Shown here piece after piece: positions 2,461-56,912 of a DNA stretch of 64,000 nt. The position numbers and the translations under genes are program-made. Under the pieces are notes generated by a model that worked only from the letters and a program-made list of their open reading frames with translations, was not told the DNA's origin and ran no database searches. Numbering within the stretch: the first letter of the stretch is position 1; every line of letters begins with the position of its first letter. Source of the stretch: an uncultured Planctomycetia bacterium (GTDB lineage Bacteria; 4484-113; JAGGVC01); assembly GCA_964388445.1 (NCBI GenBank), contig CAYMAI010000001.1, forward strand, positions 336,215-400,214, written 5' to 3'.

Positions 2461-4566
2461 CTATTTGGCCGGCTTTGGATTATCGGCAGCGGATGGAAAC
2501 AGAAAAACGGCGGAAAGAAGCATGCCCGCGATTAAAAACCATACGGCTACTTTATCCTCGAATTTCTCTTCGAACTTGAATTCGAGTGCGTGCCCTCCGG
2601 GAGGAATCAAAACCGCTTGAAACGCGCCGTTCGCTTCGATAATTCGAACCCGATTTCCGTCGAGATACGCTTTCCATCCGGGATAGTTTGTCGCCGTTCT
2701 TACGAACAATGCGGATTTATCGGTGTTAATCGAATATTCCTGCAGCCGCGCGGTTGCCGACACAAGTCTCGCTTCCGAAACTTCGCCTCGCGATTCGATT
2801 GCGACGTTTTCGGTAACCAGCGCAATCTGGTCGAGAAACAGCGGATAGTGCGATTCGATATGTCCGAAAATGTCAGGTTCGGATTCGAATTTGCGGACGC
2901 TGTGTATGAGGTAGTATCCCCGAAGCGGCTCCGTAGCGCCGGGGAGTTCGGACGACGGAAGCGCATTCAGCCAGGCGGCTGTTTCGGCGGCGCGCGACTC
3001 CGCCATCGGGCCGTCTCCGCTTGCGAGCGCGGCGGAGTAAAAATCGCGAAAATTTTCGAGAACCAGTTCGCCGGCCCATCCCACGCTTCCGAGCCCCGCG
3101 ATTGACGGATAGCACGGTTTCGAAAACTCGGCGTCGTGATAATTTTCCGGCGCTTCGCCGGTATGGAATATTCGCTTTGCGCCGTCTTCGGCATTCATTT
3201 GTTTGAAAATTTCGGGCACCGGCAGGGCGGATTCCTTCGGCGACGTAAGGTTGAACGCGCGGTGAAACGAAAGCAGCGGGAGGAAGCACAATAGGAAGAG
3301 GGCGGAGGAGGCGATGCGGCGGGCGCGCGCCGAAATCGCGTTAAAAACCGCGCCGTCGAGCGAAATCGCGGCGAGCGCGCAGAGCATGAGAATGGCCGGA
3401 ATTATGAAGCGCGCGGGAATTCGAGTAGCGCTCATCCCAGGCACGAGCCAAAAAATCGCGTATATCCCGGCGTACTTGCCGAGCGCCAGAACGAGCGCCA
3501 CCGCGGCCGCGGAATATGCCGCGAGCGCGGCCTTGTACGCATGCGCGATCGGCAGGGCGAACTTCGATGTCTTGCGCGAAAGAATGCCGATGAAACCGGC
3601 GAGCGCGAAAACGGCCGGGATTACTCCGACGAGCGATACGTATTCGACGAATCCTTGCGGGCCGCGATAATCGGGCGATTGCCATGCGTTCGCCGGCCCG
3701 AACGCGAAAGGATAAAGCAAAGTGGCGAGCATCGTGGGCGGATAGCTGTAGGATAGGAAATCCGCGAACGTAAAATCCGAGCGGTTGCTCATGCCCAGAA
3801 GTTGAAGCGTCGAAAGCACTTGCGGAAGCGCGATAAACGCGCCGAGGAAAAAGCCCGCAGCCGGCGCGGCGATGAACGGCAATACTTTCGGCCTGTTTTC
3901 GCGCCGCTCGACCGCCAGTTTCGCGGCCAGGAGCAAGATTAGCGCGATGAATGAGATGGCTGTCATTTGCGGATGTCCGGCGAGAATCATCGACGCGGAG
4001 ACGATTGAAACGAGAGCGATTTTTTTGAGCAAGCCGGCGTTAGAAGTTCCGCGCAAATGCGCCGCGCGAGCGGCGTCCAGCCCCGCGGCAATAAGCCATG
4101 GCATAAGCGATGCGACCGCGACGAGATTGAAATGGCCGAGGTGGGCAATAAGCGGCCCGCTCGCCATGAACACGGTTGACATTATCGCCGCCCCCGAATG
4201 GCTTGCGGAAAGCCGCCGGAAAAGGAAGTATGCGCCAGCGCCCGCGAGAATCGTGTGCAAAAGACAGAAAAGCGAAATCGCCGTCCAAACGTCGAACAGC
4301 GAATGGAGGAAAAGGTTCGGCGGATAAAGCATCCCCGTCTGGCCTTCGGCGAACAGCGGAAATCCGCACGCCTGATCGGGATACCAAAGCGCGAGCCTGC
4401 CCTCCTTGAGTTCGGAGGCATAAAAGTTTCGCCACGGGTAATTTTGATAGACGATGTCGCCGCTGGGCGCGTAAACTTCGCCGAAGAACAGCACCGGAGA
4501 ATGCAGGACAATCGCCGCCGCGATTATCGCCGCAAGCGCGGCAAAAGCGCCTTTGAATTCCGTCAT
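2461..4566 (-). CDS. Large polytopic membrane protein, YfhO-like (candidate membrane glycosyltransferase family)
   Basis: 701 aa ORF, many hydrophobic segments, conserved-looking N-terminal loop (YQNYPWRNFYASELKEGRLALWYPDQACGFP). Family call from memory only. Confidence 0.5.
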   Translation of the reverse strand: MTEFKGAFAALAAIIAAAIVLHSPVLFFGEVYAPSGDIVYQNYPWRNFYASELKEGRLALWYPDQACGFPLFAEGQTGMLYPPNLFLHSLFDVWTAISLFCLLHTILAGAGAYFLFRRLSASHSGAAIMSTVFMASGPLIAHLGHFNLVAVASLMPWLIAAGLDAARAAHLRGTSNAGLLKKIALVSIVSASMILAGHPQMTAISFIALILLLAAKLAVERRENRPKVLPFIAAPAAGFFLGAFIALPQVLSTLQLLGMSNRSDFTFADFLSYSYPPTMLATLLYPFAFGPANAWQSPDYRGPQGFVEYVSLVGVIPAVFALAGFIGILSRKTSKFALPIAHAYKAALAAYSAAAVALVLALGKYAGIYAIFWLVPGMSATRIPARFIIPAILMLCALAAISLDGAVFNAISARARRIASSALFLLCFLPLLSFHRAFNLTSPKESALPVPEIFKQMNAEDGAKRIFHTGEAPENYHDAEFSKPCYPSIAGLGSVGWAGELVLENFRDFYSAALASGDGPMAESRAAETAAWLNALPSSELPGATEPLRGYYLIHSVRKFESEPDIFGHIESHYPLFLDQIALVTENVAIESRGEVSEARLVSATARLQEYSINTDKSALFVRTATNYPGWKAYLDGNRVRIIEANGAFQAVLIPPGGHALEFKFEEKFEDKVAVWFLIAGMLLSAVFLFPSAADNPKPAK

Positions 4567-10400: not shown

Positions 10401-10898
10401 CTAGTCGGAATGCTGGCCGTCTTTGAACAACAAGTCTAGCTGGTCGAGCGGGTGCTGCGAGCTTAAATGGCTGTGAGGATAGTCCGACGGATATTTGACC
10501 ATGTTGCGTTTGCATGGCAAATACTCGATTTTATGCATCGTTTCCGCAAGCAGCTTTTCGTTTTTAATCTGAGTCTCGATGACTTTTTCGTCCCAAACTT
10601 CGCCCGTGCGGCCGATTTCGCGATTTATCAGCCGCTCGCTTGCGCGCCGGATGTACCGGACTACCGTGTCCGCCGTGTTGTTGCCCTTGGGCGAAAAGAC
10701 GACGTGCACTTCGTCAGGCAAAACAACGTAACCGCCGAGAAGGCACTGGTTCAGCTCGCGAGTGTTCGCGATAAAGCTAACGACGATAGCGGCGATTCCC
10801 CCGTCCGCTAGCTGCTGCGCTCGCCTGACCGTATTCCAACTGACGGCAAAGATTTTCCCATGCTTGTGTTCCCCAGGCATTACCGCAATATTATACAC
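10401..10898 (-). CDS. IS200/IS605-family HuH tyrosine transposase-like protein (RayT/TnpA-REP-like)
   Basis: 165 aa; HuH-like motif LPDEVHVVF, downstream RYIRRASERLINREIG...GEVWDEKV and C-terminal Y-containing segment resemble Y1 transposases; single gene, no obvious IS ends or partner tnpB. Confidence 0.55.
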   Translation of the reverse strand: MYNIAVMPGEHKHGKIFAVSWNTVRRAQQLADGGIAAIVVSFIANTRELNQCLLGGYVVLPDEVHVVFSPKGNNTADTVVRYIRRASERLINREIGRTGEVWDEKVIETQIKNEKLLAETMHKIEYLPCKRNMVKYPSDYPHSHLSSQHPLDQLDLLFKDGQHSD

Positions 10899-12523: not shown

Positions 12524-12654
12524 TTCGCACTCTATTTTAGACCCGTCGTTTGGCCCACGTGGCGGCGGACTCTGCCTTGCCGCATATTTTTTTTCCGGAC
12601 GGCATGATTGTGATAAACTTGACGCGCCCATGTTGATAGCTTTCCGGAAGTGCC

Positions 12655-14850
12655 ATGTCAGGCGAGGTAATTGCAATGCGCATAGATAAATTTGCCCTGA
12701 TGGTTGTCGCGTTGATAGCCGCACTTGCGGCGTTTTCGGCGCCGGTTAACGCGGAAATCGTCAATCTCGTGTTTTTGCACACGGGAGACTCCGAGGGACA
12801 GCTTTATTCGTTCTATCCGAACGACGCCGCGCTTGCCGAAGTGGGGATTTCTTCGAAGCCGGTCGGCGGATATCCGAAACGGCACATTTTCTTCGCGGAC
12901 AAGCGGGCGAACAAGAAAATCCACTGGATTGCGCTGGACAGCGGAGGGGCGTTCGGCGGCTCGATGCTGTCGTTTTATACCCAAGGCTTTGCCGACATCG
13001 ACATGATGAACAGGCTCAAGTACGACGCGATGGCGCTCGGCTTGCAGGAATTCCGGTTCGGCCAGCCGGTGCTGAAAGAGCGGGTGGGAATGGCGCAGTT
13101 CCCGTTTCTGTGCGCGAATGTGAAGGTAGCGGACACCGGCGAATATTTCGCCAAGCCGTTCACGGTAATCGAAAAGGGCGGGCTAAAAATAGGGGTTATC
13201 GGGCTGATTTCCGGAAATGCGCAAAACCTGATCAACCCAAGGCATACGGAAGGATTGATTTTCAGCGACCCGGTCGAGTCGGTCAAAGCGATTTTGCCGG
13301 AAGTGCAAAGCCAGGCGGACGTTATCGTCGCGCTTACCCATCAAGGCGTGGATGCCGATATAAGGCTTGCCGCGGAAGTGCCGGAAATCAGCGTAATCGT
13401 CGGCGGAATGAGCAAGACCGAGCTTGAAGTTCCGATGCGCGTAGGCGATACGTACATCGTGCACGCCGGAATGTGGGGCGAAAAAGTCGGAATGTTCAAG
13501 GTGACGTTCGAGAGCGAGGACGGCGAAAGCTGGCACATCCGGTTTTTCGACGAAACGCTCGTCGCGATGGACGGTAGATACGCGGATAACACCGACATTC
13601 TCAAAGTGCTAAACGCCCACGCAAGCGACGTTCAAGCCAAACTAGGCGTCGTACTCGGGGAGTTTAAGGAAGAGCTTTCGAACCTCCGCGTAAAGGCGTC
13701 GGAAACCGAAATCGGCAACTTTGCGGCGGACGTGGCCCGCGAATTCGCCGGTGCGGACGCGGCGCTGATAACGGCGTCGAGCATACGTGCGCCGCTTCCC
13801 GAAGGGCCGATTACCGCCGGCGACGTGTATCGCGCGTTTCCCTGCGACGATGTTCTCGTCAGCTACGAGCTAAAGGGCTTCGAGCTGTGGCGGCTTTTGA
13901 ACGAAAGCGCAAGGCAAATCGGAACGAACGGTTTTCCGAGCGTCTCGAACATCGAATTCGGGATTTTCGACGGAAAGGCATACGACGTCATCGTAGGCGG
14001 CTTGAACCTAGTGCCGGATGGAACCTACACCGTCGTAACGACGAATTACGTTGCCGGTGGCGGCGAAGGTTACGGCGCGCTTCTGGGCAGAACGCCAGTT
14101 CTTTATACCGGCGTCACTTTGCGCGAAGCAATCGAGGATTACATCAAATCGCGCACCGGAATCGCTCCTGAAACAGAAGGGCGAGTTTATTTTCTTGCGG
14201 AACCGCCGGAATCGGAAGGTTCGGAGCCATACGAATATTACGTTCCGCCTTACGAGGAAGAGGAAACTTCCGGCGATGAAAGCGCGGAAACCGAAGAACC
14301 GGCGGATGGAGGCGAAGCGCTTCTGCCGGAGGACGGCATAGCGAATCTGGAGGAGATGGAGGCCACGCCTTCGTCCGGTTCTTCCGGAGGTCAACCGCCG
14401 ATGCTAACCGAAAATTACGTCGGAGTAGCGGAAATTACCGAGGAAGGTGTGCATTACGCATTCGCCGTTGTACCGCGCGAAGAACTGGGACAAAAGTATC
14501 TAGAATTCCGGCTTGACGTGACGAACGTGGGCGAAATCAACAAGCTGATTAATTTCCAAACTCATCAGCACGTGGACTTCGTAATCAAAGAAGGAAACAG
14601 AGTGGCTTGGAACTTCGGTTTCTGGCGTTACTGGCCGAATATCGTCGATTCGTTCACGCTCGAGCCGGGAAAATCCGTAACATACATCGCGAACTGGGAC
14701 GGGCTTGAAAACAGCGGGACGAAGGCCGCAAGAAAGCTTTACAGGTTCGAGGCGCAATACCTTTCCACCGGCGGCGCGACGCTAGGATTCACGAGCCTTC
14801 TCGAATGGAGCGGTTCCGCGGAAGGCGGGGAATCAGGAACATCCGAATAG
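12655..14850 (+). CDS. Secreted 5'-nucleotidase/metallophosphoesterase-family protein with degenerate metal-binding motifs and C-terminal BsuPI-like beta domain
   Basis: Signal peptide; N-terminal calcineurin-like and C-terminal 5'-nucleotidase-like regions; expected DxH, GD, GNH[DE] and GH positions read D-S-E, G-G, GLQEF, HQG; C-terminal ~130 aa resemble the intracellular proteinase inhibitor (BsuPI) fold. Confidence 0.7.
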   Translation: MSGEVIAMRIDKFALMVVALIAALAAFSAPVNAEIVNLVFLHTGDSEGQLYSFYPNDAALAEVGISSKPVGGYPKRHIFFADKRANKKIHWIALDSGGAFGGSMLSFYTQGFADIDMMNRLKYDAMALGLQEFRFGQPVLKERVGMAQFPFLCANVKVADTGEYFAKPFTVIEKGGLKIGVIGLISGNAQNLINPRHTEGLIFSDPVESVKAILPEVQSQADVIVALTHQGVDADIRLAAEVPEISVIVGGMSKTELEVPMRVGDTYIVHAGMWGEKVGMFKVTFESEDGESWHIRFFDETLVAMDGRYADNTDILKVLNAHASDVQAKLGVVLGEFKEELSNLRVKASETEIGNFAADVAREFAGADAALITASSIRAPLPEGPITAGDVYRAFPCDDVLVSYELKGFELWRLLNESARQIGTNGFPSVSNIEFGIFDGKAYDVIVGGLNLVPDGTYTVVTTNYVAGGGEGYGALLGRTPVLYTGVTLREAIEDYIKSRTGIAPETEGRVYFLAEPPESEGSEPYEYYVPPYEEEETSGDESAETEEPADGGEALLPEDGIANLEEMEATPSSGSSGGQPPMLTENYVGVAEITEEGVHYAFAVVPREELGQKYLEFRLDVTNVGEINKLINFQTHQHVDFVIKEGNRVAWNFGFWRYWPNIVDSFTLEPGKSVTYIANWDGLENSGTKAARKLYRFEAQYLSTGGATLGFTSLLEWSGSAEGGESGTSE

Positions 14851-14900: not shown

Positions 14901-15764
14901 ATGGACTTCCTATTAGACCTGTTCAGCGTTGACGGCGTAGTGCTTTTCGTTTTCGGGCTTCTCACGATAATGAGCGTGGTGGACACGCTTAACCTATCCA
15001 TCAGAGTCGCCGGCGTAATCACGAAACGGCTCGCCATCGCTCTGACGCTTTTCAACATTCTGATGGTCTTCTCGCGCATGAGCAATATGATTCAGGCGCC
15101 GTTCGTCGGGGGAATGGTGGATGGCGCAATTCTCGCCAGTCCTGGCGGCCACGCCGAGTTAATCGTAATCCCTAAGTTCAGAATGCTCATTCTTGCGTAC
15201 ACGCTCGGCGCGATGCTCGGCGCGTTCTTGACGCCGACTTTTCAGCGGATTTTCAGCAGCGTCATAATGGAATTCGAGGAAAAAAAGAGCATGGCGCGCG
15301 CAGCGGCGAAGATTTTCAATCCTGCGAATTTATTCAAGCTGACTCTGCCCGGCAGGGGGCATTTCGAGCGATACTCGAACTGGAAAAACATTCCGAAAGG
15401 CTTCATCGTTTGGAATCTTTTCGTTACGAGTTTTTATACGGTCGGCGTTTTGAGCTCGCTTCTCGCCGGAGCGATGCTTCCCGAATTCAGGGCGACGGCC
15501 GCGACGCTTTCCGGGCTAGTCAACGGCATAGCCACGTTTCTTTTGTTCCTGATGGTGGACCCGACGGCGGCGCTCATTACCGATCATTGCATACTCGGAA
15601 AGCGGCCGGAAATCGACGTGAAGGTGATGAACTTTTACCTTATCTGGTCGAAAATTTTCGGCACGCTGCTTGCGCAGCTGCTGCTCGTGCCTATGGCGAA
15701 ATACGTCGGCTGGGCTGCCGAGATGGTGAACAGGCTTTCGGATTACTGGGCGCTTAACGTATAG
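14901..15764 (+). CDS. Polytopic membrane protein, Amj-like (DUF2837; candidate alternative lipid II flippase)
   Basis: 287 aa, N-terminal pattern L-x-LSIRVAGVITKRLAIALTLFNILMVFSRMSNMIQ reminiscent of Amj family; from memory only. Confidence 0.45.
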   Translation: MDFLLDLFSVDGVVLFVFGLLTIMSVVDTLNLSIRVAGVITKRLAIALTLFNILMVFSRMSNMIQAPFVGGMVDGAILASPGGHAELIVIPKFRMLILAYTLGAMLGAFLTPTFQRIFSSVIMEFEEKKSMARAAAKIFNPANLFKLTLPGRGHFERYSNWKNIPKGFIVWNLFVTSFYTVGVLSSLLAGAMLPEFRATAATLSGLVNGIATFLLFLMVDPTAALITDHCILGKRPEIDVKVMNFYLIWSKIFGTLLAQLLLVPMAKYVGWAAEMVNRLSDYWALNV

Positions 15765-15832: not shown

Positions 15833-17194
15833 GTGCCGAGCAGAAGCCTGAAAACATCCGGTCCGCGGAATCAGCGGTTTCCGCCGTCGCCTACCGAGAA
15901 GATAAGGCAGCGAAAACCGGCGAAAACCCCGATCAAAAGGAAGAATACGCTTGCCATCTCCTTGATAACTGCCGCCGCCGTAGCCGCCGTTATCGGCGTT
16001 ATAACCCTAATCAATTTCCGGCTTGAAGCGAAAGAGACCGCCCGCATTCTGTCGGAGCTTGCGCCGATGCTGAACAGCCAGCGGTTTTTCGTCGGCATCC
16101 AACTGAAACCGGAAGGCAGAGACACGCTATATGCCTTCGACCCGGAAACTCGAACCGCTGCAAATTTGGGCGTGCTTTCAAACGAGTTAATTGCGACAGT
16201 GAATCCCGAAAAAACGAGGCTGTTCTACCTGCGAAAACCGGTCGGGCTGAGCGTCGGACTGGCGCAGATTTTCGGAAAAACGATTTATTCCGCGGACGGC
16301 GTGGTTATCGAGCCCAAGGAAAGAAAAATTCGCGTACCGTTTCATTCGCTTCCCGGAAAACCGCTTTCGGTTGGGTACGGTGTAACCGGGATTTGGGGCG
16401 GCTCGGCGGACAGGATATTTCTATCACTTCTTAAATCGCCCGGAAACGTCGGCTCGGGTGGCTACATTTTTTACGGAGACGGCCAGACCTTGGAAGATAT
16501 GTCGCACGTCGTATTCGATTTGAGAGATAAGAAGCCGCGGCCGCATTTTCCGATTCCGGCGCGCGCGAATCTCCGGGACGCGCTTTTTATAGGCGACGAC
16601 GTATGGTACGCACAGGCGTATCCGCACAGGTTGGGTCTATCGACAATCGACGCCGAAAAGCATATGACGTTGGAAGTAGAAGACTCGATCAGCTCGCTTT
16701 TTTCCGTCAACGAAAATCAAATCGGAATCGTCAGCGGAATGCGGGCCGATCCGCTCTATAGAAGCGGCATTTTTACGCTCGACCCGGCGGACAAAACCAT
16801 CGACTTAAAATTCAAAACGGGCTCGGTCATAAGGAAAGAAAGCACGGACAAATTCAACCGCATGCTGTTTTTTATTCAGTCGGAGCTTAACGCCAAGCTC
16901 GTTTCGGACGACGAATTCAGCAACGAGCCGAGAACCACCTACGGGCTTTATGCGCTGCCGTATGAGGTGCTCGAAAGCGACGAGCCCGGCGAATTGTCCG
17001 ACTTGCGAAGGATAACTACGCTCGGACGAAGCGGGAGCGCGGGATATTTCGACGTGAATTACCGTACGAAAACCATTGTTTTTCGCGACTCGAGGGCGCT
17101 TTACGAAATTTCGTACGAAGGCGGGGAAGCAGAGGAGCTTTGGATGCCGCCCGAACTGAATCTTCAATGGATTCAGGCCATTTACTGCGATTGA
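15833..17194 (+). CDS. Membrane-anchored hypothetical protein (beta-rich extracytoplasmic domain)
   Basis: 453 aa, basic N-terminus and one TM helix (LAISLITAAAVAAVIGVITLI); no recognised catalytic motif. Confidence 0.45.
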   Translation: MPSRSLKTSGPRNQRFPPSPTEKIRQRKPAKTPIKRKNTLAISLITAAAVAAVIGVITLINFRLEAKETARILSELAPMLNSQRFFVGIQLKPEGRDTLYAFDPETRTAANLGVLSNELIATVNPEKTRLFYLRKPVGLSVGLAQIFGKTIYSADGVVIEPKERKIRVPFHSLPGKPLSVGYGVTGIWGGSADRIFLSLLKSPGNVGSGGYIFYGDGQTLEDMSHVVFDLRDKKPRPHFPIPARANLRDALFIGDDVWYAQAYPHRLGLSTIDAEKHMTLEVEDSISSLFSVNENQIGIVSGMRADPLYRSGIFTLDPADKTIDLKFKTGSVIRKESTDKFNRMLFFIQSELNAKLVSDDEFSNEPRTTYGLYALPYEVLESDEPGELSDLRRITTLGRSGSAGYFDVNYRTKTIVFRDSRALYEISYEGGEAEELWMPPELNLQWIQAIYCD

Positions 17195-26864: not shown

Positions 26865-29018
26865 TTATTCCCGCGCCTCTGAGTTGATTTTTCCGTTTCC
26901 AAATTTCGCCGCCAATTTCAAATATGCCGCGTATACAACGTAAAGGAGGCTGCCGTTTATCATCCCGATTGCCGCGCCGAGAAGCGTGCGGGTAAGGCTG
27001 ATTCCAATCGGCGTATGCAAATGGCAGAACGTGTTGACGATGCTCGTGAACGCCACCGCGCCGATGAGAAGAAGCACGATGGAGGGTTGTTTGCGCCTGA
27101 AAAAGTACGCGAGGAAAAAGAAAAACGCCGGAAGCCCGAACAGCTCTTTCGTTCGCGGCCTGACTGCAAGCAGGTCTTCGAGCCGCTCGCGGAACAAAAG
27201 CTCCAATTGCGCGACCCCGATCGGCGCTTCGTTTCCGCTGCGAAGAAGTATCAGCGCGAGCGCGGCGATGCCGAGAAACACGACCATCATATCCACGAAT
27301 TTTATGTCGAGGTCGAGGAGCGAATTCAGCCGTTCAATCCAGCCCGGAAGTTTTTTCGCATTTCCGTTTTCGCCGCCGCCGGAAACCTCGCCCTTAAACT
27401 TGAGCGATGCAAGATTCCAAAAATACACCGCGATTAAAAGAACGGGCAGCGCGAGAGATAGCATAACGCCTTTGAAGGTTTCCACTTTTACGAACGCGTC
27501 CGCCGAGTTTATCAGCGCGTACACGAAAATTCCGCCCAGCGCGCTTGCGGCGATTGCGATTAGATATGCCGAAAGCACGCGGCCGTAGTTCGCCGGAACT
27601 TGTTCCTTGCCGCGAAGCAGCAGCGCGATGGCGAGCGCGGCGCCCGCGACCGGCGCGAGAATCGCGGCGACAAGCGCCCAGCCGGAATATAGCAGGGCGG
27701 GCGATTTGATAAACAGCGCGGCGCTTCCCGCGATGGAAAGAGCCCAGAAAGCCGGCTCCATCCACATCGGCGCCGCGAAAAACAGCCGGATCATCAATGC
27801 TGCGAGCGAGATGACGCCGAGCGCGGCGAGAAGTTTCAGCGGATGCAGGTCTTGAAAATCCGGCGGCGACGGTTCGCGCGCGACGTTGAAGCCGTGGCGG
27901 TTTATCGCATCGAAAAGCGAGCCGTAATATTCGAGGTTGAATTCGAGAGCGCTCTCGGATTTTGCGCCGCGCCCTTCGTCCACGAAAAGCCCGGTGAAAA
28001 ACGGACGGACGTATACCAGCCTGACGTTTCTTTCCTTCAGCGCTCGAACGAACCGCGACTGCGCGACGGATGGCTTTTGTTTGACCATTTCTTCCGCGCT
28101 GATGCTGTGCGTTATTACGACGTCCGGCGAAAGCATCGACGCGAGCGCGCCGGCGCCGTCCTGAATTTCGAATTCTATCCAGCCCCAATACCAGCCGTAT
28201 TTTTCGATTTCCGCTGCGGTTGCGGCGACGTTGTTCGGATAACCGAGAACCGCGTCGCCCTCGAAAATGACGGTGCGCACGTCCGCGGGCGCGGCCGGCG
28301 AAATCGTAAGCTCGCTCACCTTTTGCAAATCGGCGAAGACCGCGGCAAGGTCGTTTGCGTCGTACTTCGGATTATTCGTCACTCGCGCGACGACGTCGAA
28401 GCCCGCCGCTCGTACCCGACGCCATTCGCCCTTGTCGAAACCGAGATTTATTTTATTCAGGTCAACTTCGGCTTCGCGCGGAATGCTGATTAGAAACCAG
28501 CCGCCCGCGGCAGCCCCCGCATCCGGCGATGGCAGCCGTTCGAGCGCGACCGGAACCGAAATGAAATTTTCGCCGTATAGCAGCTTCAGCCTTTCGCGCG
28601 CAGCCTCCTCGCGCTCTTCGCCGAAAATGCAGAAATTGCGGCGCGCCAAAACCGAATCGAGAATATCCGCCAGGCGCGGATTATCCTCCGCCCACTTTAA
28701 AATCAAGTCGTCGCCGGCTTCGAATAGGTAACCCTTTTCATGCGCTGCGAGAAAAGTGAGTTCGCTGACCGCCATGCTGGAAAAGCCGGTCGAGCGAAGC
28801 CTTGCGAGCACGCTTTCTATCGATTGGCCGCTAACCTGCGCAAGCTGGAAAGCCGCGTTGTAATCGAGACAAACGACGGCGTCGCGATAGCGCCGGTCCC
28901 AATCGGCGCGCTGTACGAGCAGCAGAATCGCCGAAATCGTTCCGAGCGCGATCAAAAACAGCGGGATGAAAACGCTTGCGGGTACGCCGATTATTCGCAA
29001 AGGAGTTTTACCTGCCAT
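26865..29018 (-). CDS. Large membrane protein: N-terminal extracytoplasmic domain plus C-terminal polytopic domain
   Basis: 717 aa; single N-terminal TM, ~300 aa soluble region, then 8+ hydrophobic helices; no catalytic motif recognised. Confidence 0.55.
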   Translation of the reverse strand: MAGKTPLRIIGVPASVFIPLFLIALGTISAILLLVQRADWDRRYRDAVVCLDYNAAFQLAQVSGQSIESVLARLRSTGFSSMAVSELTFLAAHEKGYLFEAGDDLILKWAEDNPRLADILDSVLARRNFCIFGEEREEAARERLKLLYGENFISVPVALERLPSPDAGAAAGGWFLISIPREAEVDLNKINLGFDKGEWRRVRAAGFDVVARVTNNPKYDANDLAAVFADLQKVSELTISPAAPADVRTVIFEGDAVLGYPNNVAATAAEIEKYGWYWGWIEFEIQDGAGALASMLSPDVVITHSISAEEMVKQKPSVAQSRFVRALKERNVRLVYVRPFFTGLFVDEGRGAKSESALEFNLEYYGSLFDAINRHGFNVAREPSPPDFQDLHPLKLLAALGVISLAALMIRLFFAAPMWMEPAFWALSIAGSAALFIKSPALLYSGWALVAAILAPVAGAALAIALLLRGKEQVPANYGRVLSAYLIAIAASALGGIFVYALINSADAFVKVETFKGVMLSLALPVLLIAVYFWNLASLKFKGEVSGGGENGNAKKLPGWIERLNSLLDLDIKFVDMMVVFLGIAALALILLRSGNEAPIGVAQLELLFRERLEDLLAVRPRTKELFGLPAFFFFLAYFFRRKQPSIVLLLIGAVAFTSIVNTFCHLHTPIGISLTRTLLGAAIGMINGSLLYVVYAAYLKLAAKFGNGKINSEARE

Positions 29019-31853: not shown

Positions 31854-33782
31854 CTACCATCCATTGATTGCAGCGTAGTAATTTGCAATGCCAGCAATTG
31901 GCACTGCTCCGGTTTGATCCAAGTCCCGTCTGCGAGTATTTACTATTCTTGCTTGAACTTGGATATAGGTTGAGTCTGGGCGAATTCGGTACAAATGAAA
32001 TGCAAGCGATGAAACTTGTGGTGCACATGCGGATGTCCCATTAAAGTGATCGTAGCCGGAAAAAGGTATTGTTGATAAATGGCGACTTCCAGACATGAAA
32101 TCCATAAAGTCATATATTCCCGATACCGGATAGGTTGTGTAGTTATCGCTGAAATAGTTAGAACCGTTGCCGATTTCTCCCGTGTCCCACTGAGTTCCGT
32201 AAAAGTTTGTCCTAAGCCCACTCACGCCTAAAACGTTGTCATGCGCCGCGGGATATGTGCGCAAGTGCTTGCGCTCGTTTCCAGCGCTTGCAACATATAA
32301 CCGATCGTTTCGCCTTAGATCAAGCGATATTTCATCCTTCATGGTCTTCGGAGGATTCCAGTCCATGTACTTCCATCCTCCACCAAAACTCATATTGACT
32401 ACTCTTACCTTCTCTCTCCAATTGAGATGAGGCTGTCGTGGATCGTGATGAAATTCGAACCTTAGCGCTCTTATTGCTTTTAGCATCGAACCTGCAGTAA
32501 ACTTTTCCAAATATCCATCGACAATATTGTCAACCTTTAATCGTATGGGGAGAATTTTTGCATTTGGAGCCATGCTTGCAGTGCCGATGGAGTTGTTCGT
32601 AGCAGCCGAAATAATTCCCGCAACATTTGTACCATGTTTTGCCAGATTTCCGGTAACAGGATCGATAAATGTAGGCTCTCCCTTACCTTTGCCTACTTCA
32701 TAGGACTTATCCCAGCAGTCGACACCGATGTTGCTAATATGCCAATCTCGAACTCCTCCACCTTGAGTTGGACCGTTCAGATCTGGATGGTTTCTATAAA
32801 CCCCCGAATCAATGACCGCAACCATTTGGTCCGAAAAATTAGCGCTTCCTTGACCCCCTTCGGGCCCATAAGGTATTTGAGGAATCTGGTTCACGAAAAA
32901 GTGATTGATATAAAGCGCTTTGTTGCTGGTGTAATGCGTGTCGTTCGGAGGAGGATAATCTGCGGTATATTCGTCCATTGTATTTGGCTGAGCCTGTTCA
33001 ATCTTCTGATGAGTGCTGAAATATGCGTAAGCGAGGTCGAATGTAGAAAATCTTTCCTCAGTGAATCTAAACTGAAACCATGCGATTGAATTTCCCTCTT
33101 CTGGTTCTTCCGGCCCTTCAAACCAAGAAAAGATTACGTAAAGATCGTTAGCGGCAATGAAATTGCTAATTTCCTGCTCCGTCACTTCCTGCTTGAATAA
33201 CACAATCATCTCGTCTTCAGCGATTTCGAATTCCCCGCCAGCGGGTGCAGTCCAAATAATTGTCTCCGGTGATTCTTCATTATAGTTTGTAGTAAAAAAG
33301 TCCTGCAGAGGTTCGTTAGTTACCAGAATGTTTCCGTTGGGCAGTTGATACGTGCCTGTAAACGGATCGGGACTTGAGAGGCGGTTAACGGTAACAAATT
33401 GCCCCGGAGAAATCTCGACAACGCTTTGGGAGATTACAGGACCCCAGGGATTAATCTGGTCCAAATAAGGATCCAACAGCGATTGCGGATCACCGATAGG
33501 ACCTGCTATCTGCCTTTCCCAGCCTTCAGGCGGGTCGCCGCCGCTATCGAATGGCCCTTCGCCTCCGCCACCGGGATCGTTAGCAATTGCGGTTTGCCGA
33601 GTTTTCTCTGGGTCTTTGGAATCGGCACCATCCTGCGATTGCTGCGAATCGATTCTTGCCCCTGCGGTCATCTTGGCGTCCCTGTCACAAGACATCAGCG
33701 CAAAGGCGCACATCATTACAAGGGCGAGTAAAACTACCCCCCCCCCCCAGCCGGGGGCAAACGAAAACTTGGACTTTTTCAT
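31854..33782 (-). CDS. S8-family (subtilisin-like) serine peptidase, lipoprotein
   Basis: Catalytic triad motifs AVIDSGV, HGTNVAGII, GTSACAP; lipobox ALMSC; first ~40 aa and upstream leader nucleotide-identical to the peptidase at 55161..56912; 12-nt G run in signal-peptide codons. Confidence 0.85.
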   Translation of the reverse strand: MKKSKFSFAPGWGGGVVLLALVMMCAFALMSCDRDAKMTAGARIDSQQSQDGADSKDPEKTRQTAIANDPGGGGEGPFDSGGDPPEGWERQIAGPIGDPQSLLDPYLDQINPWGPVISQSVVEISPGQFVTVNRLSSPDPFTGTYQLPNGNILVTNEPLQDFFTTNYNEESPETIIWTAPAGGEFEIAEDEMIVLFKQEVTEQEISNFIAANDLYVIFSWFEGPEEPEEGNSIAWFQFRFTEERFSTFDLAYAYFSTHQKIEQAQPNTMDEYTADYPPPNDTHYTSNKALYINHFFVNQIPQIPYGPEGGQGSANFSDQMVAVIDSGVYRNHPDLNGPTQGGGVRDWHISNIGVDCWDKSYEVGKGKGEPTFIDPVTGNLAKHGTNVAGIISAATNNSIGTASMAPNAKILPIRLKVDNIVDGYLEKFTAGSMLKAIRALRFEFHHDPRQPHLNWREKVRVVNMSFGGGWKYMDWNPPKTMKDEISLDLRRNDRLYVASAGNERKHLRTYPAAHDNVLGVSGLRTNFYGTQWDTGEIGNGSNYFSDNYTTYPVSGIYDFMDFMSGSRHLSTIPFSGYDHFNGTSACAPQVSSLAFHLYRIRPDSTYIQVQARIVNTRRRDLDQTGAVPIAGIANYYAAINGW

Positions 33783-52134: not shown

Positions 52135-53922
52135 TTAATTACGCAAATCGTATATCCAAATCGCGCCGTTCGCGATTACCTCGTCCGGCCGCGAATTCAG
52201 GAACGCGGCGGATAATTCATGCGCACGCGCCGATTGTTCGACGAATAAATTTACGTCGGTTATTTCGGAGTAACCGGTTGCAACCCAAAGACTAACCGCA
52301 TAGACGTTTCCCGGCTTGAAATCTCGGGGTAGGACGTCGTCCGGCGTTACTAGCGTTGCGTTTAGACCGTACACCGCCGGGTTGTCGCGCAAATTTCCGT
52401 AATACAACTTCACTCCTGCCACGCCGTTTTCGTCCATCCATTTTTTCAGCGCTGGCAGGCCCTGTCCCCAGTCCAAATTCGAGTCGCTAAGCAGATATGC
52501 CCGTCTTGCCGGCGATCCAGCGAATTCATTCATGTAACTTATCGGATATGGCATTTGACTAAGGCTCGACGTCGCCGCAAATAAAACCAAGGCCGCGCAA
52601 ACCGCCGTTCCGTACTTTTTCAACGCTGGAATGCGATCGAACCCCGTTAATGCGCCGGACGCGTAAACGAAAAGCAACGGATAAACGAACAGCAGGTGTC
52701 TTACTCCGAAATTCATACCGCTGAATATCGCGATGGCCGAGTAAATGAAAACGGGGATGAGCAGCGCAGTCTCGAAATCGCGGACCTTTGCCGGTTTGGC
52801 GAACGTAAGTGCCGCGCTCGACAAAATTAACAGCATAATCGCGATCGGAGTTTTGAAAAAAAATACCGCGGGAAAATAATGCCACCATCCGCGCAGGCTG
52901 AATTCGCCGAACAAATAAGCCGGATGTCCGAGTGATATGTGATGGAATACCTGATATATGCCCAGCATTGTTTCCTTTTGCACGGGTACTGCGGTAAGCG
53001 CTCCGGCAATCGCATCCTCGATAGGCGTGTCCCCAGGTATCGCGGAATCAATCCTTTCCTCGAATCGCGGCGAATTTTCGGGAGTGATTTTTTTCATCGT
53101 GAACGCGTAAGCCAAGGGAATAGCAAGCGCCAAAGCGGCGGCAACAAAAGCCAAGTAAAAAAGTATAAAACCGCAAAGAGCTCCGCATGGCGATTTGCCC
53201 GGTAACTTGATGCGAAAAATTCGAGTGGGAATTTTGAATGCTCCGCGCTTGAAAAGCCATGCGAAAATTGCAATAGAACAAAGCGGCACGGCAAGCCCGC
53301 TGAATTTTGTCAGCGCCGCTGCCGCGGTGAAAAACATCAGAAGCGAAAAGCTAAGCATCGAACCGGTTTTTGCGAAACGAATCGTGAAATACACGGACGC
53401 CAAAACCGCCGCTGCGATTGCCGCGTCGCTGTTCGCAAGCGCGGCGTGCGCGATAAGGTTCGGCTCGATGGCGAAAATCGCAATCGCAAGAGTGCCGGCC
53501 TTTGTGCCGTAAATTTCGCGCGCCGACAGGAACGCGAATACACTTGAAAGCGAGACCAAAATCAGCAGGGGCAGCCTCGCAGCGAACAGAATCCAAAGTT
53601 GATTTTTTTCGTTTACGCGCCAAAATTCCTCGGAAAACGCGATTTGATCCTTTGCGTTCCACGCGCCGCCGCCAATCGGCGATTTAACGCCCGCTGCCGC
53701 GAGCGGCATACCGATTAGCCATTTTGTGAGCGGAGGATGCTCGGTGTTCATTCTGAAGTCCCGAGCGCCATAATATGAAACTGCGGCGGGAATGTGCAAT
53801 GCCTCGTCGTTGGTAAGCCCGTTTTTGTGGGCAACCCAAGCGCCTTGAGCAAAAAATATCGCAATTAACAGCGCGATGGGTAGCCCCTGAATTCCGGTTG
53901 AAAAAAGGCGCTTCACGCACAA
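52135..53922 (-). CDS. GT-C membrane glycosyltransferase (PMT/ArnT-like, COG1807-type), paralog 1
   Basis: 595 aa polytopic protein; first extracytoplasmic loop with acidic DE motif (GLTNDEALHI), large C-terminal soluble domain; about 50-60% identical in aligned N-terminal blocks to 57463..59307. Confidence 0.8.
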   Translation of the reverse strand: MCVKRLFSTGIQGLPIALLIAIFFAQGAWVAHKNGLTNDEALHIPAAVSYYGARDFRMNTEHPPLTKWLIGMPLAAAGVKSPIGGGAWNAKDQIAFSEEFWRVNEKNQLWILFAARLPLLILVSLSSVFAFLSAREIYGTKAGTLAIAIFAIEPNLIAHAALANSDAAIAAAVLASVYFTIRFAKTGSMLSFSLLMFFTAAAALTKFSGLAVPLCSIAIFAWLFKRGAFKIPTRIFRIKLPGKSPCGALCGFILFYLAFVAAALALAIPLAYAFTMKKITPENSPRFEERIDSAIPGDTPIEDAIAGALTAVPVQKETMLGIYQVFHHISLGHPAYLFGEFSLRGWWHYFPAVFFFKTPIAIMLLILSSAALTFAKPAKVRDFETALLIPVFIYSAIAIFSGMNFGVRHLLFVYPLLFVYASGALTGFDRIPALKKYGTAVCAALVLFAATSSLSQMPYPISYMNEFAGSPARRAYLLSDSNLDWGQGLPALKKWMDENGVAGVKLYYGNLRDNPAVYGLNATLVTPDDVLPRDFKPGNVYAVSLWVATGYSEITDVNLFVEQSARAHELSAAFLNSRPDEVIANGAIWIYDLRN

Positions 53923-55160: not shown

Positions 55161-56912
55161 CTAGGGACGTAATGTCTCGTACGCATTCAACTTCCAAGCG
55201 CCAAGATTGGGGTCGTAAGTGGCGCGCTGAAGAATCCGGTTCTTAGCGAGTTGTGGCGCTGAGTATTGGGGTCTCGTTACCAGCATCCCTGCTACAGCGC
55301 TCACATGTGGAGTGGCAGCGGACGTGCCGCTAAAAGCTGCGGTCAAGCCTTCCGGGTCACTTCGATAGCCAAGGTCGTACAAACCATTTGGGCTCTTTCC
55401 AACCATATCGACTGTCCAAATGAGCTGGTTTCCGGATCCTTCTCCACCTGGAGCAAATACGCTTCCCAATTTGCTGTATCCTGTCATTTGCCCAGATATC
55501 TTGTACGCACCTACAGACAATACTCTAGGATGTCTTGCAGGCCAATCTTCGGGCCATCTGGGTTCAGCGACTTCTTTGCGATTTCCTGCCGCGGCTACAA
55601 AAAGCATGTGTTGGGTGAGCTTGTCGAGAAAGCGCATATTCGTCTCACCTAAAGACGGTCCGCCGAAGCTACAATTTACAACCTCAATATTAGTATAAGG
55701 TACTTGCGGAACGAAAGGATAATACTCCCAATCCGCGCGGTAAATCCTCTTGACGCATCCTATAGCGAGGAATGAATTGGCTAAAGTAGAAGTTGAAAAA
55801 CCGCTATTGTGATACATTGCGATCGGCAGAATACGAGGACAACGAACAATTCCGCAAATATCCTGCTCGTCGTCTAACTGGTAGCCGGGGTCGTTATTGA
55901 TTGCGGATCCGATTATTCCAGCGACACAGGTACCATGACCCGCACTGCGAGCTGATACTGCACTAGCGTTTAACACACTTGGACTTGGCTGACCATGCCC
56001 TTGACCGAATGTTGTCCACCATTTGCTATCGTACGTGTTAACGCCCCATGAAAGAAATGCGGAACCTAGATCTTTATTGGCTTGCCTTCTCTGAACTCCA
56101 GTATCCAATATCGCAATTATGCCGGAATCGTAATAGTAATTCTTCCAAGCGTTCTGAATTCTAATGCTCTGTCCACTCGCATCGCGTATCGCCCATTGAA
56201 ACGGAAACAGATCGTCATCGGGCTCTGCGTCTATTGGCCATGCGCAGGTCGAAGCCAACGCATCCGGATCGACGGAATCGATTAAGTCGGGATATTCGTC
56301 CGGCCAATATTCGACTGCATACTCAATGCTTGTTCCTTGCGGCAACAGCGCGCCTATGCACTTTACCGCGTTCCACTCCACAAAGACTGCCAATTCTTCG
56401 GCAAGCACAAAATCGGCAACATCTTGATCCTCCGATACGGTGCTGTATGATGTTTGATGATAGTACTCATCCTCTGGGGATATTTCCTCATCGAAGTAGT
56501 TCGGGTCAACATCGGGATATTCCGGCGGGTTCTTGAACGCGATTATTACTCTTCCGTCGATTATAGGGTATGTCTCCTGGGTACGCGGATCGGTAAAGTC
56601 GCGAATGTCCCATTCGTCTTCTTCGTCGAATCCGCCGCCGCTTCCGCCCGGGCCGCCGTCCATCGGCTCTTCTCCGCCTCCGCCGAAATCTCCCGCGGAC
56701 GAGTTTCCGCGACTTTTGGTTGCGGATTGGCTTTCCGTAATGGCATCCTGGCCGGCTGCCGGTGTTGCTGGAATCAAACCGGTCGCATCCCCTGCGGTCA
56801 TCTTGGCGTCCCTGTCACAAGACATCAGCGCAAAGGCGCACATCATTACAAGGGCGAGTAAAACTACCCCCCCCCCCCAGCCGGGGGCAAACGAAAACTT
56901 GGACTTTTTCAT
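55161..56912 (-). CDS. S8-family (subtilisin-like) serine peptidase, lipoprotein, paralog 2
   Basis: Triad motifs IAILDTGV, HGTCVAGII, GTSAATPHVSAVAGML; N-terminal 40 aa and 5' leader identical to the peptidase at 31854..33782; same 12-nt G run. Confidence 0.85.
   Translation of the reverse strand: MKKSKFSFAPGWGGGVVLLALVMMCAFALMSCDRDAKMTAGDATGLIPATPAAGQDAITESQSATKSRGNSSAGDFGGGGEEPMDGGPGGSGGGFDEEDEWDIRDFTDPRTQETYPIIDGRVIIAFKNPPEYPDVDPNYFDEEISPEDEYYHQTSYSTVSEDQDVADFVLAEELAVFVEWNAVKCIGALLPQGTSIEYAVEYWPDEYPDLIDSVDPDALASTCAWPIDAEPDDDLFPFQWAIRDASGQSIRIQNAWKNYYYDSGIIAILDTGVQRRQANKDLGSAFLSWGVNTYDSKWWTTFGQGHGQPSPSVLNASAVSARSAGHGTCVAGIIGSAINNDPGYQLDDEQDICGIVRCPRILPIAMYHNSGFSTSTLANSFLAIGCVKRIYRADWEYYPFVPQVPYTNIEVVNCSFGGPSLGETNMRFLDKLTQHMLFVAAAGNRKEVAEPRWPEDWPARHPRVLSVGAYKISGQMTGYSKLGSVFAPGGEGSGNQLIWTVDMVGKSPNGLYDLGYRSDPEGLTAAFSGTSAATPHVSAVAGMLVTRPQYSAPQLAKNRILQRATYDPNLGAWKLNAYETLRP

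Follow-up and report, generated by a model that had tools for sequence, protein, structure and literature searches.

What does a secreted homologue of the 5'-nucleotidases do once its metal site has decayed, and why does it carry a domain named after a protease inhibitor? The question is raised by a gene at 12655-14850 (+ strand) in a 64,000-nucleotide (nt) stretch of DNA from an uncultured Planctomycetia bacterium (GCA_964388445.1, contig CAYMAI010000001.1, positions 336,215 to 400,214), referred to here as the window, whose coordinates are used throughout. A sequence-only reading had described the product as a secreted, catalytically dead scaffold with an inhibitor-like C-terminus, and had linked it to the subtilisin-type (S8) peptidases encoded in the window. 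We found that the protein lost its catalytic residues, kept the 5'-nucleotidase and BsuPI folds, evolves under purifying selection and is specifically paired with the downstream gene amj, and that Amj is itself fused to a BsuPI domain in two lineages. In our judgement the protein is somewhat likelier than otherwise to be a non-catalytic periplasmic accessory protein (a pseudoenzyme) working with Amj.

The active site and its decay across the family

The open reading frame at 12655-14850 (+) was confirmed, giving a product of 731 amino acids (aa), and its features are as follows.

12676-14850 (+): putative pseudo-5'-nucleotidase-BsuPI fusion gene, 724 aa from M8 (731 aa if the start is 12655)
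12665-12668 (+): GAGG Shine-Dalgarno sequence, 8 nt 5' of the ATG at 12676; 12655 is an in-frame ATG farther upstream
12676-12753 (+): predicted Sec-type signal peptide MRIDKFALMVVALIAALAAFSAPVNA, with E following the cleavage site, judged by inspection of the translation; no lipobox Cys
12754-13575 (+): N-terminal domain of the metallophosphoesterase fold, its dimetal site degenerate (D-S-E, G-G, G-L-Q-E, T-H-Q-G, G-M-S-K), from motif alignments, the fold model and the lack of a Metallophos match
13576-14205 (+): 5'-nucleotidase C-terminal (substrate-binding) domain, partly degenerate (PF02872, E 3e-25)
14206-14415 (+): acidic Pro-rich disordered linker, from composition and low model confidence
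14416-14811 (+): BsuPI/IPI-type Ig-like beta-sandwich domain, from Pfam and profile searches

Residues are numbered in the 731-aa product unless M8 numbering is stated. The registration of the active-site motifs was checked in three ways, by phmmer against 2z1a, by MAFFT alignment with catalytic relatives and by comparison of an AlphaFold 2 (AF2) model with UshA, and all three were concordant. The closest solved relative was the T. thermophilus 5'-nucleotidase 2z1a (phmmer E 6e-46, residues 38-531). The AF2 model superposed on E. coli UshA with a TM score of 0.79-0.80 (Foldseek), indicating that the registration is not an alignment artefact. Its predicted local distance difference test (pLDDT) score was 85-98 across most of residues 60-510, the 5'-nucleotidase body, and it showed the two-domain layout of a metallophosphoesterase fold plus a 5_nucleotid_C domain.

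The motifs read earlier from the letters (D-S-E, G-G, GLQEF and HQG) held in all three checks. Motif I (DxH) supplies two ligands of metal site 1, an Asp, which is still present, and a His, which is now Glu (D45-S-E47). Motif II (GD), with the bridging Asp, reads G96-G97. Motif III (GNH[DE]) reads G129-L-Q-E132, with Leu in place of the Asn ligand and Gln in place of the catalytic His, and the dyad Asp three residues past it is an Arg (G-L-Q-E-F-R). The claim that the ligand histidines were replaced needs one small correction, as the His ligand of motif IV is kept (T-H229-Q-G; a Tyr stands there in the relatives L002/L009). Motif V (GHxH), which the sequence-only reading had omitted, adds to the losses (G-M254-S-K256). 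In the C-terminal domain, the phosphate-binding Arg of V-R-x-x-E-[ST]-N has become Lys and the base-stacking Phe of L-P-F has become Cys; the Arg of GGIR is retained (SSIR), as is the second stacking aromatic, in the form of Tyr.

Profile searches gave the same picture. No match of the window protein to Pfam Metallophos (PF00149) was found even at E<=1, and it scored 176.7 bits against the NCBIfam UshA equivalog NF007109, whose cut-off is 600. Scored against the 5'-nucleotidase structures 2z1a and UshA, a check proposed together with the original motif readings, the metal ligands were mostly lost rather than conserved. The motif losses and the missing Metallophos match agree with the earlier prediction and support the reading of this protein as a catalytically dead 5'-nucleotidase scaffold, its inactivity being deduced from sequence.

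We gathered relatives with the same architecture by word-index, genome, metagenome and profile searches (P and L numbers are our own labels for them), and found the active site at several stages of decay. P0029 is fully intact (DTH, GD, GNHE, H, GHSH, R, GGIR, PF) and matches Pfam Metallophos. P0038, P0046, L030 and L032 have lost only the ligands of metal site 2 (GVH, GMSH/Q), and clade B (L011-L015 and P0023) combines the site-2 losses with the loss of one more ligand (DTQ). Nearly all motif residues are gone in clade A, which comprises the window protein, L001, L002/L009 and L010. Three further groups (P0030/L033/L034, P0061 and P0076) are dead by routes other than that of the window's clade. 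Within clade A the former ligand positions vary among close relatives (E/Q/G; L/S; Q/P/G; H/Y; M/R; K/E), suggesting relaxed selection at the old active site and no substitute catalytic constellation.

The family shares more than its domains. An acidic Pro-rich linker of 69-178 aa was present in 14/14 aligned members; that of the window protein spans 76 aa in the alignment window, with 29% D+E, no K/R and a model pLDDT of 24-36. A basic helix (K68, R69 and K76) and W84, in M8 numbering, are conserved in the family and absent from ordinary 5'-nucleotidases. Members are publicly annotated as '5'-nucleotidase/UDP-sugar diphosphatase' or '5'-nucleotidase C-terminal domain-containing protein', and the first of these labels is almost certainly wrong for most of them. 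With an intact enzyme at one end and several forms that died independently at the other, the family is a natural series suited to the study of how an enzyme turns into a scaffold.

Degenerate 5'-nucleotidases were also seen outside the family. P0014 (L007:3247-4851) and P0016 form an independent lineage without BsuPI, with the motifs DSE, GE, ANHE, Q and GDSD. The P0014 gene has fliH-fliI on one side and a gene for a large hybrid sensor histidine kinase on the other, and the protein may be a pseudoenzyme with another role; a shared context with the fusion genes was ruled out, the neighbours being flagellar and sensor kinase genes, with neither BsuPI nor Amj. P0011 from Spirochaetota, annotated 'bifunctional UDP-sugar hydrolase/5'-nucleotidase', reads GVHD and GLSH and thus loses the same two site-2 ligands as the intermediate fusion proteins (Asn to Val, His to Leu/Met), a recurrent variant.

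The dead domain is still functional and under purifying selection. Substitution rates were obtained from the window protein and a 79%-identical relative, a pair in which dS is saturated and dN/dS is hence approximate. In the dead N-terminal domain the nonsynonymous rate (pN) was 0.081 and the synonymous rate (pS) 0.698. The pN was 0.082 in the BsuPI domain and 0.227 in the linker, so that the dead domain and the BsuPI domain tie as the most constrained parts of the protein. The neighbouring amj and purC were under comparable constraint.

Pairing with amj and the BsuPI domain

The informative neighbour, not taken up by the sequence-only reading, is the gene that follows.

14901-15764 (+): amj (PF10997, 'alternate to MurJ'), the conserved partner gene, 50 nt downstream of the fusion gene

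The window Amj scored 267.7 bits against a cut-off of 27, covering profile positions 2-252 of 253, and has six hydrophobic segments, as a polytopic membrane protein. No terminator-like site was found between the two genes. When relatives of the fusion protein (31-100% identity) were searched from the fusion-protein side, amj lay immediately downstream in 13 of the 16 assessable lineages: the window group, L001, L002/L009, L003/L011, L012/L015, L013/L014, P0029 (L020/21), P0030 (L022), P0038 (L023/24), L030/31, L032, L033 and L034. L029, whose sequence ends at the gene, was left out of the count. In three lineages the stop and start codons overlap, at a distance of -1 nt, and three others have a gap of 2-5 nt; the gap is 28 nt in clade B, while the window and L001 have 50 nt. 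The two genes are likely to be translationally coupled. The other flanking genes are unrelated between lineages. Among 78 generic 5'-nucleotidase loci from the same scans, 53 of which extend 1.5 kb or more downstream of the gene, no amj match was found (0/78). A reverse search from the Amj relative P0180, which belongs to an unsampled lineage, found a 5_nucleotid_C+BsuPI protein of 748/760 aa encoded upstream with a 1-nt overlap.

Some loci share a longer gene order. In L003 and L023/L024 the fusion gene and amj are followed by genes for a protein of about 200 aa (with a weak V4R match in L023), a SIS+CBS sugar-phosphate isomerase-like protein, a PfkB kinase and a prepilin peptidase (A24); in L107 the shared order ends with the ~200-aa gene. 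At L010:2600-2720 the family gene is broken by a masked run of N, and genes for a TPR/thioredoxin-like protein and a CPBP-type membrane protein come next.

Some Amj proteins carry a BsuPI domain of their own. In P0207 (407 aa), Amj ends in such a domain (Pfam 53 bits), and the gene upstream of it encodes a 745-aa 5'-nucleotidase-like-BsuPI protein. In L023, beside P0038, Amj is 414 aa long, and its C-terminal extension gave an hhalign probability of 96% against the BsuPI alignment. The fused BsuPI domain of P0207 is 31-35% identical to the partner-type BsuPI domains. Hydropathy and a charge count gave Amj six membrane segments, with the K/R-rich loop between transmembrane segments 3 and 4 inside; by this crude method the C-terminus of Amj, and hence the fused BsuPI domain, would lie on the extracytoplasmic side, where the secreted partner would be as well.

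The C-terminal domain has an Ig-like beta-sandwich fold of the type of the intracellular proteinase inhibitor (IPI), as the earlier comparison of the last ~130 aa with BsuPI had anticipated. Residues 613-688 matched Pfam BsuPI (PF12690) with 32.5 bits (gathering score 22.9), and the relatives matched with 43-63 bits. A profile built from the last ~135 residues of four family members had a single match in the PDB, the B. subtilis IPI structure 3ISY (E 1.6e-6). A word-index homology search with this domain alone returned no matches, and an exhaustive profile search was required; over 1.84 billion cluster representatives it found 1036 proteins at E<=0.001, among them proteins with 4-6 tandem BsuPI repeats (Pfam) and small single-domain proteins.

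The window protein shows the family signature TN...DF...W...PG...W. A wedge motif conserved across the BsuPI family, R-x-F-[TVM]-Q, corresponds to IPI residues 62-68 (KMFTQAF) and aligns here to RYWPNIV within W-R-Y-W-P-N-I-V; it is kept as NRFF[VMT]Q in most fusion proteins and reads WRYWPN in the window's clade. These IPI residues were proposed as the inhibitory site from docking only (PMC3901451). According to the same report, B. subtilis IPI inhibits the subtilisin-type Isp1 with a nM Ki, the family has been removed from MEROPS as true inhibition is unclear and its members are possibly competing substrates, and most BsuPI homologues are secreted, sit at the cell surface and are built of several domains, among them SLH, LysM or peptidoglycan-binding ones (PMC3901451).

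Gene start and neighbouring genes

The true start of the fusion gene is probably M8 (ATG 12676) rather than 12655, because GAGG stands 8 nt upstream of it and because an identical database protein, P0001, is 724 aa long and begins with the Met encoded at 12676. The earlier view that the protein is secreted agrees with the Sec-type signal peptide, and hydrophobic N-terminal leaders were found in relatives too. A lipoprotein anchor was ruled out, since there is no Cys near the cleavage site.

The gene's place after purC-purS, called odd by the sequence-only reading, is real and carries little meaning, for a hairpin parts these genes from the fusion gene.

12562-12583 (+): terminator-like hairpin and T-run after purS, with a 7-bp stem, 5 GC pairs and the tail ATATTTTTTT

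The purC-purS pair lies upstream of the fusion gene only in the closest relatives and not in more distant ones. Given the intervening hairpin and this lack of conservation, the position is incidental, and the adjacency was dropped as a clue to nucleotide metabolism.

Several other genes of the window were noted. Right after amj, 15833-17194 (+) encodes a 453-aa protein with no Pfam match, which may be anchored in the membrane, given an N-terminus rich in Lys/Arg with a hydrophobic stretch behind it; it is conserved close to the module in L001 (62% identity) and farther downstream in L002/L009 (34%), and not in other lineages. Between a cNMP-binding gene and the purC region, a 165-aa open reading frame (10401-10898, - strand) has a sub-threshold match to IS200-like Y1 transposases (19.8 bits vs 23). 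Other envelope-related genes, all on the - strand, encode a weakly YfhO-like membrane protein (2461-4566), a DUF5693 protein (26865-29018, 420 bits) and a PMT_2-type glycosyltransferase (52135-53922).

A proposed partner of Amj, its rivals and known systems

If the protein is a non-catalytic partner of Amj, its BsuPI domain would dock at or beside the extracytoplasmic face of Amj, through a BsuPI-BsuPI or a BsuPI-Amj contact, and the tethered 5'-nucleotidase-like body would serve for binding or scaffolding in the vicinity of the flippase. Because one family member, P0029, is still intact, the family probably descends from a periplasmic phosphoesterase that was active and coupled to Amj; catalysis would then have become dispensable repeatedly, with the Amj partnership retained. 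Several points weigh against this proposal. Gene adjacency is no proof of physical or functional interaction, and amj is not directly downstream in L010, P0061 (L025) or P0076 (L026). The Amj topology call comes from simple hydropathy and a positive-inside charge count, and the rate comparison shares the approximation noted above. An unconventional activity may persist, above all in clade B, where GD and the catalytic His are retained along with two other ligands. The role of Amj as a lipid II flippase is also debated, so the cellular process served is uncertain (PMC12096821).

In one rival reading the protein is still an enzyme. A remodelled site could persist, in which for example D45, E47 and H229 hold a single metal or a different chemistry operates, acting on something exported by Amj such as undecaprenyl-pyrophosphate (Und-PP) or a lipid-PP-sugar. 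The intact P0029 is coupled to amj, the intermediates keep the catalytic His, GD and two ligands, and Glu is able to ligate metals. UshA-type enzymes are established to cleave the pyrophosphate bonds of UDP-sugars. Against this stand the replacement of the bridging Asp by Gly, the catalytic His by Gln and its partner Asp by Arg, the changes of the phosphate-binding Arg and stacking Phe in the C-terminal domain, and the variation of the replacement residues among the closest relatives, as relaxed selection predicts. We therefore consider a remodelled enzyme rather unlikely, even though a recent study connects the phenotypes of murJ/amj with how much Und-PP is available (PMC12096821). The cleavage of pyrophosphate bonds by UshA-type enzymes, together with the implication of Amj in the handling of Und-PP-linked precursors, raises the idea that the dead body could be a receptor that recognises, in the periplasm, the pyrophosphate-sugar head group carried by the Amj cargo (lipid II or another Und-PP-linked intermediate), descended from a UDP-sugar or pyrophosphate hydrolase and held in place by BsuPI. 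This version is speculative and, to our mind, equally doubtful; were it true, a flippase of cell-wall precursors would for the first time have a dedicated subunit that handles its substrate on the extracytoplasmic side, and the intact members would be periplasmic Und-PP(-sugar) pyrophosphatases coupled to flipping.

Other readings detach the protein from Amj altogether. It could be a periplasmic ligand sensor or binding protein whose place beside amj is an operon accident inherited in a narrow group of uncultivated bacteria. The named family genomes are all labelled 'UBP7', Planctomycetales or Planctomycetia or are 'bacterium' metagenome-assembled genomes, so shared ancestry could partly explain the pairing; three lineages lack it, and the independent degenerate 5'-nucleotidase lineage adjoins a sensor kinase. 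Yet the pairing survives to about 31-40% protein identity while other flanks change, stop/start overlaps are maintained, and BsuPI domains of the same subfamily are fused onto Amj in two lineages, which leaves an accident improbable, if still worth keeping in mind. The idea of the sequence-only reading, that the dead body is a mere carrier for a BsuPI domain acting as inhibitor of periplasmic or secreted S8 peptidases, draws on a genuine homology and fold, on the reported inhibition of Isp1 (PMC3901451), on secretion and on the presence of at least two S8 peptidases in the genome. The link to those peptidases gained no support: their genes (31854-33782 and 55161-56912) lie 17 and 40 kb away on the minus strand, and no subtilase was found within 5-8 kb of the fusion gene in any relative's locus. 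The conserved partner gene is amj instead, the F-[TVM]-Q wedge is lost in the window protein, the IPI family has been dropped from MEROPS and its homologues are mostly adaptor-like at the cell surface (PMC3901451), and inhibition would leave the strong constraint on the dead domain unexplained. The protease-inhibitor reading thus has no positive support beyond the domain name, and we think it quite improbable. That the gene is a functionless, decaying pseudogene or remnant might be suspected from the loss of the catalytic residues; it is refuted by a pN far under pS in each folded domain, and the intact 724-codon frame, conserved across many assemblies, and the architecture kept across distant lineages speak against it as well, so that hardly any chance is left for it.

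A partner of Amj, as we propose, would be new. Both domains and Amj itself are already known. Literature searches on Amj with nucleotidase, on BsuPI/PF12690 and on inactive 5'-nucleotidase homologues returned no prior description of the pseudoenzyme family, of this architecture or of the pairing with Amj, and no accessory protein for Amj was described in the literature searched. A conserved and probably translationally coupled partner would yield concrete, testable hypotheses on events at the outer face of this transporter.

Compared with known systems, the window protein shares with the UshA family (PF00149 plus PF02872; 1USH, 2Z1A) a Sec signal peptide, the two-domain fold and homology over residues 38-531. 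It differs from UshA in the replacement of the catalytic His-Asp dyad and of the dimetal ligands at five of six positions, in changes to several but not all nucleotide-pocket residues, and in the added acidic linker and BsuPI domain and the pairing with amj. Vps29 of the retromer offers a parallel: it has a non-catalytic calcineurin-like phosphoesterase fold that serves as a protein-interaction scaffold after loss of its metal ligands. Unlike the window protein, Vps29 has neither the 5'-nucleotidase C-terminal domain nor BsuPI, and it belongs to a different lineage and compartment, with different partners. Like B. subtilis IPI/BsuPI (PF12690; 3ISY), the window protein carries the family signature, and like most BsuPI homologues it is a secreted multi-domain envelope protein (PMC3901451); unlike IPI, its BsuPI domain follows a 5'-nucleotidase-like body, has a changed wedge and is linked to Amj and not to a subtilase. 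The downstream gene product, like B. subtilis Amj (YdaH), is a PF10997 member and is 34-43% identical to Firmicutes 'Lipid II flippase Amj' proteins. What sets it apart from the B. subtilis protein is the proposed dedicated periplasmic partner encoded upstream and, in two of the lineages, a BsuPI domain belonging to Amj itself; that partner would have originated as a pyrophosphate-bond hydrolase and survived as a pseudoenzyme, tied to Amj through a common BsuPI domain.

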